Assembly (NCBI GenBank): GCA_965204775.1
Contig: CBDBFH010000019.1
Span: 4,394-68,393, forward strand
Source of the DNA: Alphaproteobacteria bacterium
GTDB taxonomy: Bacteria > Pseudomonadota > Alphaproteobacteria > JAPOUT01 > G958296285
Direction: 5' to 3'
DNA: 64,000 bases
Positions 18,687-24,007 of the stretch are shown here, piece by piece. A program made the translations under genes and the position numbers. The notes beneath the pieces are model-generated. The model worked only from the letters and a program-made list of their open reading frames with translations, was not told where the DNA came from and ran no database searches. The number at the start of each line of letters is the position of its first letter. The stretch's first letter is position 1.

Positions 18687-19271
18687 CTAGAGGATCGCGG
18701 CCAGGGCGATGATCAGGGCCAGCGCGGCAAGCGCAGCAAAGAAGAGGGCGGAGGACCACCCCCCTGCCCTTTTGAGCAGCGCTTCGGCGCGCGGTCCGGC
18801 GATGCGGCACACGAGGGCAAGAGCATAGAAGCGCCCTCCCCGCGCAGCAAGACCGGCGAGGACAAACAGGGGCAGGTTCATGCCGGCGGCGCCGGCGGTG
18901 AGGGCGACGATCTTGTAAGGGACGGGGGTCAGGCCGCCGATGAGAACGATCCACAGCCCGTAGCGGTCATAGTTGCGGCGAAAGTCTTCGACCTCCTGGC
19001 CGAGGCCATAGAACGCGATCAGCGGCCCGGCGGCGGCGTCATAGAAGAACTGGCCGATGAAGTATCCGGCGGTTGCCCCGGCGACCGAGAAGAGGGTGGC
19101 CAGGGCGGCGAAGCGCCAGGCGCGGGCCGGGGCGCTGAGGCACATGGGGGCGAGCAGGGCGTCGGGGGGGATCGGGAAGACGACGCTTTCGGTGAAGGCG
19201 ACCAGGCCCAGCAATTGGCTGGCGCGGGGGTGGGCGGCGCTGGCGCGCAAGCTTTCGCGGGAGAAGGTCAT
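18687..19271 (-). CDS. DedA/YqaA family membrane protein
   Basis: Multi-pass membrane protein with a DedA/SNARE-associated-like core (FPIPPDALL... GLWIVLIGGLTPVPYKIV). Confidence 0.7.
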   Translation of the reverse strand: MTFSRESLRASAAHPRASQLLGLVAFTESVVFPIPPDALLAPMCLSAPARAWRFAALATLFSVAGATAGYFIGQFFYDAAAGPLIAFYGLGQEVEDFRRNYDRYGLWIVLIGGLTPVPYKIVALTAGAAGMNLPLFVLAGLAARGGRFYALALVCRIAGPRAEALLKRAGGWSSALFFAALAALALIIALAAIL

Positions 19272-19381: not shown

Positions 19382-19719
19382 GGCGCTGTGGCGGAATTGG
19401 TAGACGCGGCGGACTTCATGCAAAGGGGTTGCTCCGGCGGAAACGCCGGGGACAGAACTCGTCAAATTCGGCGAACGCCTCCGGGCTTGTCCCGAAGCCA
19501 ACGCCGAGCGAAGCCCGGGGGATTTCTTTCGGGAACGTGTAGAGACTAGACGGCGAGCGGCTAAAGCGCCGGTTTTTAATCCGGAGCCAGGCCGAAGGCA
19601 TAGTCCAGCGCACGAAACGGCCGGAGCGGGTCTCCTGGCCGGCGGCGAAAGCCGCAGTGTGACGCAAAATCCGTTGTTCCGTGAGGAACGTGAGAGTTCG
19701 AGTCTCTCCAGCGCCACCA
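19382..19719 (+). tRNA. tRNA-Leu (predicted anticodon CAA) interrupted by a group I intron. Exon 1 is 19382-19415, exon 2 is 19675-19719 including the encoded CCA
   Basis: Class II tRNA-Leu hallmarks are split by 259 nt: D-arm GUGGCGGAAUUGGUAGACGC, anticodon stem GCGGA/UCCGU, variable arm GUUCC-GUGA-GGAAC, T-arm GAGAG-UUCGAGU-CUCUC, and acceptor GGCGCUG/CAGCGCC-ACCA. Joining after U33 gives the loop CUCAAAA. Confidence 0.8.
19416..19674 (+). ncRNA. group I self-splicing intron (IC3-like, tRNA-type) inside the tRNA-Leu anticodon loop
   Basis: P2 with GAAA loop (CUCCGGCG-GAAA-CGCCGGGG), GUCAAAUUCGGCG (J3/4-P4), CAACGCCGAG (P4'), R-like GUGUAGAGACUAGACGG, S-like AAGGCAUAGUCC, P9 hairpins including GCGGC-GAAA-GCCGC, and a terminal G. 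Close resemblance to the Azoarcus tRNA-Ile intron as recalled from memory. Boundaries +/-1 nt. Confidence 0.75.
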
Positions 19720-19794
19720 TTTTTTGCGGGCTTGACCCTGTCGGGCGGCGGGCTAGTATTGGCGTTTGAGGGATGGGGGCGACAGGGGGCGAAG

Positions 19795-21594
19795 ATGGGT
19801 GTCATCAAGCGGCTGCGCAATGAGCTGGCGACGCTGGCCAGCGGGATTCGGCTTCAGCGCCGGCTGAAGGAGATTCGCGAAAATCCGGCTTTGACCTTTT
19901 CGGAGCGGATTGCGGCGCGGGCGGCGCAGACGCCGGATGCGCCGGCGATTTTTTACGAAGACGACGTCATGACCTACCGCGCCTACAATGCGCGCAGCGA
20001 TGCCTATGCCCACTGGCTCAGGTCGCAGGGTCTGGCGGCGGGCGAGGTGGTTGCCCTGAACATGGAGAACCGGCCCGATTATCTGTGCGCCTGGCTGGGG
20101 ATCGTCCGGGCCGGGGGGACGGCGGCGCTGATCAACACCAACCAGACGGGGCGGGTTCTGGCCCATTCGCTGAACATTTCGGGGGCGCGGCGTCTGATTT
20201 TGGGGGCGGAGATGGCGCACAATCATGCGACGTGCACCGGCGAGCTGGAGCGCGAGATGGAGGTCTGGGCCCAGGGGGGTGCGATTCAGGGCATGAAGGA
20301 TCTGGACGCGGCCCTGGCCGAGCAGCCGCAGGAGGCTTTTGCCGCCGACGCGGCCCACACGCCCGCGCCAACCGATGTTGCGCTTTATATTTACACCAGC
20401 GGGACGACGGGCCTGCCGAAAGCGGCGAAGATTTCACATTTCCGCCTGCTCAACATGATGGGCGGCTTTGCCACGATCAGCCGCGCCGGCCCCAGGGACC
20501 GGGTTTATATCGTTCTGCCGCTTTATCATTCGGCGGGCGGGGTGTGCGCGGTGGGGATGGGGCTGTTGAGCGGCGGGGCGGTGATTTTGCGCCGGCGCTT
20601 TTCGGCCTCGGCCTTCTGGGAGGACGCGGTGCGCTATCAAGCGACAATTTTTCAGTATATCGGCGAGTTGTGCCGCTACATGCTCAATGCGCCGCCGCAC
20701 CCGCAGGAGGGCGCGCACGCGATTCGGCTGGCGGTGGGCAACGGCTTGCGGCCCGAGATCTGGCCGAAGTTTCAGGAGCGCTTCCGGATTCCGAAGATTC
20801 TCGAGTTTTACGGGGCGACGGAGGGCAATGTGGCCCTGATGAATTTTGACGGCACGGTGGGGGCGGTTGGCCGGATTCCGGGATGGGCGAAGAAGATGTC
20901 GGAAGTCGAGCTGGTGCGCTTTGACACCGAGCGCGAAGAGGTCGTGCGCAACGCGCAGGGCCTGTGCGAGCTGTGCGGCGACGGCGAGACGGGCGAAGCG
21001 GTCGGCAAGATCATCACCGACGATCCGGAGCGCGCGGCGACCCGTTTTGAAGGCTATGCCGATGCGGCGGCGACGCAAAAGAAGCTTCTGCGCGACGTCT
21101 GCGAGAAGGGGGACACCTGGTTTCGCACCGGCGATCTGCTGCGCCGCGACCGGCAGGGCTATTACTATTTTGTTGACCGGATCGGCGACACCTTTCGCTG
21201 GAAGGGGGAGAATGTCGCGACCTCGGAAGTGGCCGAGGCGATTGCGACCTTTCCCGGGGTTGACGAGGTGAATGTTTACGGCGTTGCGGTTCCCGGCGCG
21301 GACGGGCGCGCCGGGATGGCGGCGATTGTCGCGCCGGAGCTGGACCTGGCGAAGTTCCAGACCTATCTGGACGGCCAGCTGCCGGCCTATGCCCGGCCCG
21401 TGTTTTTGCGCCTGCAGGAGAAGATCGAGATTACGGTGACCTTCAAGCACCGCAAGGTCGATCTGGTCAAGGAAGGGTTTGATCCGGAGGCAATCGGCGA
21501 ACCGCTCTATTTTGCCGATCCGCAGGCGAAGGCCTATGTCCGTCTGGACGCGGCGCTTTACCGGCGGATCACCGGGGGCGAGGTCCGGCTTTGA
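19795..21594 (+). CDS. long-chain/very-long-chain fatty-acid-CoA ligase (AMP-dependent synthetase, FATP-like)
   Basis: AMP-binding motif YTSGTTGLPKAA and an adenylate-forming enzyme core. Start chosen at MGVIKRL downstream of the tRNA, because the six-frame ORF starts inside the tRNA. Confidence 0.85.
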   Translation: MGVIKRLRNELATLASGIRLQRRLKEIRENPALTFSERIAARAAQTPDAPAIFYEDDVMTYRAYNARSDAYAHWLRSQGLAAGEVVALNMENRPDYLCAWLGIVRAGGTAALINTNQTGRVLAHSLNISGARRLILGAEMAHNHATCTGELEREMEVWAQGGAIQGMKDLDAALAEQPQEAFAADAAHTPAPTDVALYIYTSGTTGLPKAAKISHFRLLNMMGGFATISRAGPRDRVYIVLPLYHSAGGVCAVGMGLLSGGAVILRRRFSASAFWEDAVRYQATIFQYIGELCRYMLNAPPHPQEGAHAIRLAVGNGLRPEIWPKFQERFRIPKILEFYGATEGNVALMNFDGTVGAVGRIPGWAKKMSEVELVRFDTEREEVVRNAQGLCELCGDGETGEAVGKIITDDPERAATRFEGYADAAATQKKLLRDVCEKGDTWFRTGDLLRRDRQGYYYFVDRIGDTFRWKGENVATSEVAEAIATFPGVDEVNVYGVAVPGADGRAGMAAIVAPELDLAKFQTYLDGQLPAYARPVFLRLQEKIEITVTFKHRKVDLVKEGFDPEAIGEPLYFADPQAKAYVRLDAALYRRITGGEVRL

Positions 21595-23930: not shown

Positions 23931-24007
23931 GCGCCCGTAGCTCAGCCGGATAGAGCACCGGATTCCTAATCCGGGGGCCGCAGGTTCGAATCCTGCCGGG
24001 CGCACCC
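23931..24007 (+). tRNA. tRNA-Arg (anticodon CCU)
   Basis: GCGCCCG acceptor, D-arm UAGCUCAGCCGGAUAGAGCA, anticodon loop UUCCUAA, T-arm GGUUCGAAUCC, 3' CGGGCGC-A-CC. Confidence 0.9.

Follow-up and report, generated by a model that had tools for sequence, protein, structure and literature searches.

Group I introns that split bacterial tRNA genes have been catalogued in some depth. The survey of Williams (2020; bioRxiv 10.1101/2020.01.27.920355) counts 5,292 such genes in 21 host/site classes, and a later survey (mSystems 2026; PMC13011429) reports 333 introns from 4,934 complete genomes, spread over almost all positions of the anticodon loop, with 33/34 as the common site in tRNA-fMet and one of the main sites in Pseudomonadota. 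Among the classes of Williams (2020), Leu.3Cg comprises 72 introns, all from Proteobacteria, which split tRNA-Leu(CAA) and have a C at position -1 (junction CUC/..g/AAAA), and the seed alignment of that work includes both a member of this class (Bba346.Leu.3Cg) and a tRNA-Leu intron at 33/34 (Eba21.Leu.2Ug). Here we describe a related locus in a 64-kb window of the alphaproteobacterial contig CBDBFH010000019.1. The window is the whole stretch of DNA that was analysed; positions are those within it on the forward strand and bases are written as RNA. Inspection of the sequence revealed a split class II tRNA-Leu gene at 19382-19719 (+), interrupted in the anticodon loop. Very probably, as judged from sequence comparison, it represents a functional tRNA-Leu(CAA) gene that is interrupted between U33 and C34 by a 249-nucleotide (nt) IC3 group I intron, a vertically inherited and register-shifted relative of the tRNA-Leu(UAA) introns.

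Exon 1 (19382-19415, +) contains the acceptor 5' strand GGCGCUG (19382-88), U8 and G9, the D arm GCGG-AAUUGGUAGA-CGC, G26, the anticodon-stem 5' strand GCGGA (19409-13), and C32 and U33 (19414-15), so that U19415 is the -1 nucleotide. Exon 2 (19665-19719, +) starts with CAAAA, which provides C34, A35 and A36 of the anticodon CAA followed by A37 and A38, and continues with the anticodon-stem 3' strand UCCGU (19670-74), the variable arm GUUCC-GUGA-GGAAC (19676-89), the T arm GAGAG-UUCGAGU-CUCUC (19692-19708), the acceptor 3' strand CAGCGCC (19709-15), A73 (19716) and an encoded CCA (19717-19). The long variable arm, A73, an 11-nt D-loop and the pairing of the exons after removal of the intron identify a class II tRNA-Leu. 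The cloverleaf has 25 pairs across the exons, all of which are formed in each of six homologs, with changes on both sides in the variable arm and a one-sided change from G.U to A-U at the first anticodon-stem pair. A first-pass annotation had proposed a split class II tRNA-Leu from the letters alone; its outer coordinates were exact and all sequence blocks that it quoted are present, whereas its start of exon 2 (19675) and its intron length (259 nt) were both off by ten and should read 19665 and 249 nt.

The same arrangement is found at homologous loci. A minus-strand block of COQ7, DsbB and DedA genes, the split tRNA gene and a plus-strand acyl-CoA synthetase gene occur in this order in five lineages, namely the window, L086/L120, L124/L125, L129 and L133, and the junction CU/uc...g/CAAAA is identical in all five. 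We refer to the intron of these loci as alpha-type. The lineages are well separated, as their acyl-CoA synthetases are only ~57-64% identical. An intronless tRNA-Leu(CAA) gene with the loop CUCAAAA lies beside DsbB/DedA in the Parvibaculum-like loci L121-123 and in L130. The window gene is orthologous to these intronless genes: they share neighbours, and after removal of the intron the window tRNA matches the L121 gene at 79% identity, versus 66-67% for the exons of betaproteobacterial tRNA-Leu(UAA). At the non-syntenic loci L126-128, L132 and L134-136, which were reached through homolog lookups, the tRNA was not found.

The intron (19416-19664, +) ends in the terminal guanosine omegaG (G19664). 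It contains no open reading frame (ORF) and is too small for a protein gene, which agrees with the earlier remark that there is no room for a homing endonuclease. P1 (19412-19430) is a hairpin of 6 base pairs (bp) between GACU/UC (19412-17) and the internal guide GGGGUU (19425-30); it presents the splice-site wobble U19415.G19427, and its pairing is identical in all alpha-type homologs and thus in the five lineages. P2 (19431-19453) has 9 bp with a bulged A19452 and a GAAA tetraloop (19440-43). Next come the P3 5' strand CUCGUC (19458-63), J3/4 AAA (19464-66), the P4 5' strand (19468-73), P5 (19477-98), the P4 3' strand CGCCGA (19502-07) and P6/P6a (19508-38). The P7 5' strand G-(A bulge)-GACUA (19542-48), in which A19543 is bulged, is followed by the P3 3' strand GA..CGAG (19549-57), and the P3/P7 pseudoknot can be written out. 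P8 (19559-19593) consists of an outer GGCU/GGCC helix, an inner helix and a UUUUUAAU loop. The invariant block AAGGCA-UAGUCC (19595-19606) forms J8/7 and the P7 3' strand, of which 19601-06 pairs with 19542-48. The P9 domain (19608-19663) is a three-way junction with a closing stem (19608-13/19657-63), P9a (19618-41) and P9b (GCGGC-GAAA-GCCGC, 19642-55). The guanosine-binding site in P7 is the G19544-C19605 pair beside bulged A19543 (G19542-A19543-G19544...C19605-C19606).

This structure was compared with an alignment of 43 introns, six of the alpha-type and 37 of the tRNA-Leu(UAA) type. Over P1 to P9b, 81.5% of the cells are standard pairs, as opposed to 36-40% when the partners are slid, and changes on both sides occur at 45 pairs; none of 500 shuffles reached the observed values. 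In this alignment P3 pairs throughout (100%) and each of its four variable pairs has changed on both sides, P4 is 98% paired, and the P9 stem (91.5%) and P9b (93.5%) both show compensatory changes, with P9a being variable in length. P6, P8 and P9 covary, and in P8 both sides changed at 8 of 10 pairs. For P2 this holds for all eight pairs tested across the 43 sequences and for four of the nine pairs among the alpha-type homologs. P7 is invariant, as is the column of G19427, and omegaG is the last base before the exon in every one of the 43 introns. The alpha-type sequences alone are 89.8% paired in the intron, and further compensatory changes, in P3 (U-A to C-G), P7 (A-U to G-C) and P9, come from the fifth and more diverged homolog, L133. 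Folding of the single sequence recovers P2, P8, P9a and P9b, with a weak z-score of -2.3. With the P1 wobble, the P3-P8 core including its P3/P7 pseudoknot, the guanosine-binding site and omegaG all in place, the element is a group I intron. Since pairing and compensatory changes hold across the three alignments, the intron core is intact and under selection. The earlier proposal of a complete IC3-like core, for which failure of P3 and P7 to pair had been named as a refutation, therefore holds.

Standard searches handle the locus poorly. ARAGORN in its default, non-intron mode gave nothing at 19382-19719. In intron mode ARAGORN 1.2.41 returned a split tRNA with exactly these ends (and thus the exon 1 start at 19382), but with misplaced intron borders: it called a tRNA-Lys(ttt) gene whose intron has 257 nt and lies at 35/36, and matched the 5' strand of the anticodon stem to an incorrect 3' partner. 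The intron-mode search that the first-pass annotation had proposed as a check thus got the tRNA ends right, and the intron borders and isotype wrong. Miscalls of this sort are described in Williams (2020). Likewise, Rfam at the gathering threshold reported nothing at 19382-19719, as the 50 bits required for RF00028 (Intron_gpI) were not reached. The covariance search that had been suggested did give a match in E-value mode, at 19407-19624 with 34.6 bits (E=3.8e-7 in 601 nt searched). Tested in the same way, a cyanobacterial tRNA-Leu(UAA) intron (L102) scored 48.9 bits, an Azoarcus-type tRNA-Ile2 intron (L097) 40.1 bits and two betaproteobacterial tRNA-Leu(UAA) introns 37.8 (L015) and 33.2 bits (L001), and the alpha-type homolog L124 scored 52.9 bits. 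Because classical members range from 33.2 to 48.9 bits and a homolog of the window intron exceeds them, the gathering score is uninformative for bacterial tRNA introns; Williams (2020) used cut-offs of 18-20 bits. An nhmmer profile was built from the 37 tRNA-Leu(UAA) introns of other bacteria, with the alpha-type left out. Against the 64-kb window it gave a single match, at 19411-19673 (135 bits, E=5.5e-41, model positions 3-248 of 249), and the one notable indel in this alignment is C19665, an inserted base directly after the conserved omegaG. The silence of the default detectors is a matter of sensitivity and the absence of the gene is excluded.

A low Rfam score could also be expected from a decaying or non-splicing relic, in which either the tRNA is a pseudogene or the intron has lost its activity. 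We consider this very unlikely and reject it. All core elements are kept in five lineages that have diverged as far as their neighbouring synthetases indicate, compensatory changes are seen in P2, P3, P7, P8 and P9 as well as in the variable and anticodon stems of the tRNA, the cloverleaf is fully paired, and classical introns of the active type score no better in Rfam.

For the functional gene, a splice at U33/C34 (19415/19665), giving the anticodon CAA, is a well-supported prediction. Enumeration of the possible junctions left CU/u...g/CAAAA as the only one that unites U(-1), omegaG and a 7-nt loop. The geometry of the ribozyme points to the same site. In alpha-type and tRNA-Leu(UAA) introns alike, the guide 6-mer directly adjoins a 9-bp P2 with a single bulge, and the third base of the guide is the invariant G. 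This G pairs with U34 in the tRNA-Leu(UAA) introns, where the guide is UUGAG(U), and with U33 in the window intron, where it is GGGGUU. Below the wobble the P1 of the window has three pairs (C32-G, A31-U and G30.U), as many as the Burkholderia type has. The U33/C34 junction is thus supported because junction grammar, synteny and ribozyme geometry agree, and the earlier call of this junction and of anticodon CAA gains backing from the five syntenic lineages, the intronless CAA genes in two related loci and the P1/P2 geometry.

Were the gene instead a tRNA-Leu(UAA) split at the classical 34/35 position, its 5' splice site would follow U19416 and its 3' splice site C19665. By exon position, U19416.G19426 would then match the U34.G wobble of the tRNA-Leu(UAA) introns, and U19416 is indeed invariant in all five lineages. 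We give this interpretation hardly any credence and reject it, since it needs an intron that ends in C in place of omegaG, contrary to group I chemistry. In addition, the invariant guide G, when measured from P2, is G19427 and pairs with U33, the profile alignment places C19665 as an extra base behind the conserved omegaG, and CAA is the anticodon of the intronless genes found at this location. Nor could a P10 pair form, because A19666 would face G19425, whereas with the U33/C34 junction C34 (19665) is able to replace U19416 opposite G19426 in a P10 of 1 bp. Cleavage after U19416 with joining to C19665, which would use a U.G wobble and omegaG with zero shift relative to the tRNA-Leu(UAA) intron, would yield a frameshift-type tRNA with the 8-nt anticodon loop CUUCAAAA, and we reject it as having next to no probability in a conserved syntenic gene for which two related loci have a normal tRNA-Leu(CAA), all the more as the P1/P2 spacing favours G19427.

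Several points do weigh against a functional tRNA-Leu(CAA) gene spliced at U33/C34. Its RF00028 score of 34.6 lies below the gathering score of 50, and the junction itself is a prediction from sequence. P1 has two adjacent U.G pairs (U19415.G19427 and U19416.G19426) and is therefore insufficient on its own to fix the site. Since the U at +1 and the C at +2 are invariant in all five lineages, no natural variant excludes U19416 as an exon base, and P10 is a single base pair. Finally, the search for other tRNA-Leu genes covered the window, with the rest of the genome lying outside it.

A pattern scan with one genome per species yielded at least 119 loci. Variants with GGUG in P4 and GACUGG in P7 were found through synteny only, because the scan pattern excluded them, and two exact-pattern metagenome scans aimed at alpha-type relatives had no matches. 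The scan loci were classified together with the four matching alpha-type loci found by synteny. They include at least 59 tRNA-Leu(UAA) introns at 34/35, mostly from Burkholderiales and also from cyanobacteria and others, at least 42 introns at 36/37 behind a CAU anticodon, at least nine tRNA-fMet introns at 33/34, five alpha-type loci and at least eight unclassified loci. Among the matches listed, Burkholderiales tRNA-Leu(UAA) and tRNA-Ile2 introns dominate, and L086 is the only alpha-type locus that came from the scan itself. In local alignments the window intron scores 117-128 against the alpha-type; against the other types, again among the matches listed, it reaches a median of 92 (best 92-104, ~70% identity) for tRNA-Leu(UAA), 57.5 for the CAU type and 47 for the fMet type. 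Its 3' end, GGCGGCGAAAGCCGCAGUGUGACG, is identical in L015, which is a Comamonadaceae tRNA-Leu(UAA) intron.

Two other findings of the scan concern tRNA hosts and introns of known types. In a Chthonomonadales metagenome-assembled genome (MAG; L025, JBBRKX010000224.1) a tRNA-Leu(UAA)-type intron at 5146-5385 (-) has the junction CUU/a..g/AAAA. Together with its flanks it gives a host tRNA that apparently lacks a long variable arm (...GCAGACUU|...|AAAAUCUGU-ACAGU-GCGGGUUCGAAUCCCGC-CACCCCCA); this tRNA would combine a class I shape with the anticodon UAA, an odd arrangement among bacterial leucine tRNAs. The tRNA-Ile2(CAU) introns of a Rhodocyclaceae MAG (L066, 5993-6088) and of Uliginosibacterium (L077, 7874-7968) carry ~40 extra nt between the 5' splice site and the guide (...ACUCAU|UCGCAGGGCACGACGC...GCAAAUGCCC...AGAGUGCC), unlike other introns of the CAU type.

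Compared with the described classes, the window intron is closest to the classical tRNA-Leu(UAA) intron (Leu.3Ug), which occurs in cyanobacteria, Burkholderiales and others. The two are homologous over their full length: they share the P1-P9 architecture, GAAA loops on P2 and P9b, the invariant guide G and ~70% identity, and the profile match mentioned above (E=5.5e-41) spans nearly the whole model. The window locus differs from Leu.3Ug in host and site, as the anticodon is CAA and not UAA and the junction is at 33/34 and not at 34/35. Its guide pairs with G30-U33 in place of A31-U34, and one extra base, C34, follows omegaG. The tRNA-Ile2(CAU) intron of the Azoarcus type (Ile2.5Ug) has a J3/4-P4 block, AAAUUCGGCG, and a GUAGAGACUAGACGG block in common with the window intron. 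It is a shorter intron at 36/37 that has no P9a/P9b arrangement and is less similar overall. The resemblance to the Azoarcus tRNA-Ile intron that had been pointed out earlier is thus real at the level of these blocks, but by alignment score the closest relatives are the tRNA-Leu(UAA) introns. The tRNA-fMet intron (fMet.2Ug; cyanobacteria and Patescibacteria, e.g. L017) shares the 33/34 site and the junction CU/u...g/C, and its U at +1 likewise lies opposite a guide G. It differs in its host tRNA and has far lower similarity to the window intron than the tRNA-Leu(UAA) type has (median 47 vs 92, among the matches listed).

Two classes of Williams (2020) resemble the window locus in host or site. 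The locus has the host and, as predicted, the site of Leu.2Ug, a tRNA-Leu with the insertion at 33/34, U(-1) and omegaG; its sole U(-1)/omegaG combination falls at loop position 2. The seed sequence Eba21.Leu.2Ug, however, has P1 as GGACU/C...GGGUCC with a C at +1 where the window intron has U, P4 as GGGG/CCCC, J8/7 as AAGGGAUAGUCC and large inserts in P6, P8 and P9. Compared by eye, the core sequences differ noticeably, and Eba21 appears to be a sub-lineage distinct from the window intron. Leu.3Cg (seed Bba346) resembles the window locus in its tRNA-Leu(CAA) host, its Leu(UAA)-like intron and its occurrence in Proteobacteria. Its introns remain at 34/35, where C(-1) forms a Watson-Crick pair with G (CUC/AG...UUUGAG), whereas the window intron retains a U.G wobble by lying one nucleotide upstream. 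Because Leu.2Ug and Leu.3Cg, the latter with 72 cases of tRNA-Leu(CAA), are already catalogued, the combination of host and site is much less unusual than the first-pass annotation had assumed. Its statement that the well-known examples sit after 34 or 36 also needs amending, as the classical tRNA-fMet intron sits at 33/34. The intron is thus a further member, and possibly a new lineage, of a sort of bacterial tRNA intron that is already known.

Based on established group I chemistry, the pre-tRNA would be made as one RNA in which the intron folds into P1-P9. The guide GGGGUU (19425-30) would pair with GACU/UC and present the U19415.G19427 wobble to the active site, where an external guanosine would attack the bond after U33. 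G19664 would then occupy the guanosine-binding site in P7 (G19544-C19605), and the 3'-OH of U33 would attack the bond after G19664. Joining of the exons is predicted to give the ligated junction ...GGACU-CAAAAUCC... (...GCGGACU-CAAAAUCCGU...), with the loop CUCAAAA in an 89-nt tRNA that already has its CCA. We infer this chemistry, the splicing in vivo and the evolutionary shift of register. The most economical interpretation of the sequences is that the alpha-type is a tRNA-Leu(UAA)-type intron in which the splice register may have shifted upstream by one nucleotide within a tRNA-Leu(CAA) gene. A deep clade of uncultured Alphaproteobacteria has probably inherited it vertically, at a single chromosomal locus, with Parvibaculum-like relatives keeping the intronless gene. 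That the alpha-type forms an independent, previously undescribed lineage which arose from a proteobacterial tRNA-Leu(UAA) 34/35 intron by a slide of one nucleotide is a tentative proposal, which we regard as possible and somewhat short of probable. In such a slide the donor U34 would have become intron base +1 and the guide would have been re-registered from UUGAG(U) to GGGGUU, leaving the reactive wobble to U33, with exon 2 supplying C34. If true, the slide would be a second and chemically orthodox way into tRNA-Leu(CAA), beside the puzzling C(-1) class Leu.3Cg, and the intron gain would be datable because Parvibaculum-like relatives keep an empty site at the same locus.

The immediate neighbours of the gene are a DedA/VTT-domain membrane protein (Pfam) upstream at 18687-19271 (-), which belongs to the COQ7-DsbB-DedA block, and a long-chain acyl-CoA synthetase downstream at 19795-21594 (+), which served as the synteny anchor. 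A scan of the region for promoters and terminators detected neither a consensus promoter ahead of the tRNA gene nor a terminator behind it. The sole sigma-70-like site of the region (TTGACC-16-TAGTAT, 19732-19759, +) lies between the tRNA 3' end and the synthetase start codon at 19795. The spacer between these two genes is 75 nt long in the window; in L120 (3570-3990) it consists of ~430 nt of palindromic repeats of G and C runs (GGGGGG..CCCCCC), which are absent from the window spacer. About 4 kb downstream lies an intronless tRNA-Arg(CCU) gene (23931-24006, +). It follows the locus in L124 and L129 too and therefore the conserved gene order extends across tRNA-Arg. tRNA-Arg(CCU) is itself a classical intron host, with its site at 36/37.

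The IleRS and the acyl-CoA synthetase of the host are only ~58-63% identical to the nearest database proteins, of which the named ones are mostly from Parvibaculum or Parvibaculaceae. Judged from these proteins, the host, whose contig is 145 kb long, is a deep, uncultured alphaproteobacterial lineage. Elsewhere in the window, an 835-amino-acid ORF (165-2672, -) has a weak match to the IpgD family of inositol phosphate phosphatase effectors (E=1.8e-7, residues 685-754 only), which is unexpected in a contig of a free-living-type alphaproteobacterium.

The most practical consequence of the locus concerns annotation. Because the gene escapes ARAGORN in default mode and Rfam at its gathering score, and is miscalled as tRNA-Lys by intron-mode ARAGORN, genomes of this clade could seem to lack tRNA-Leu(CAA), and such an apparent loss would distort estimates of completeness and codon capacity. 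Modification of U34 enables tRNA-Leu(UAA) to decode UUG, so the earlier claim that self-splicing would be required for this codon, if the gene is the only one for tRNA-Leu(CAA), was overstated. The general picture does not change, as almost all anticodon-loop positions of bacterial tRNAs are already known to host group I introns, and we consider the register shift and the pair of filled and empty sites neat and of modest importance. Still, the locus offers a clean comparison between a filled and an empty site, and it may illustrate how, in nature, one ribozyme core can work with U33 in place of U34 once its guide has been re-registered by one nucleotide. As such it bears on how group I introns move between close tRNA sites and on the tolerance of C(-1) in Leu.3Cg.

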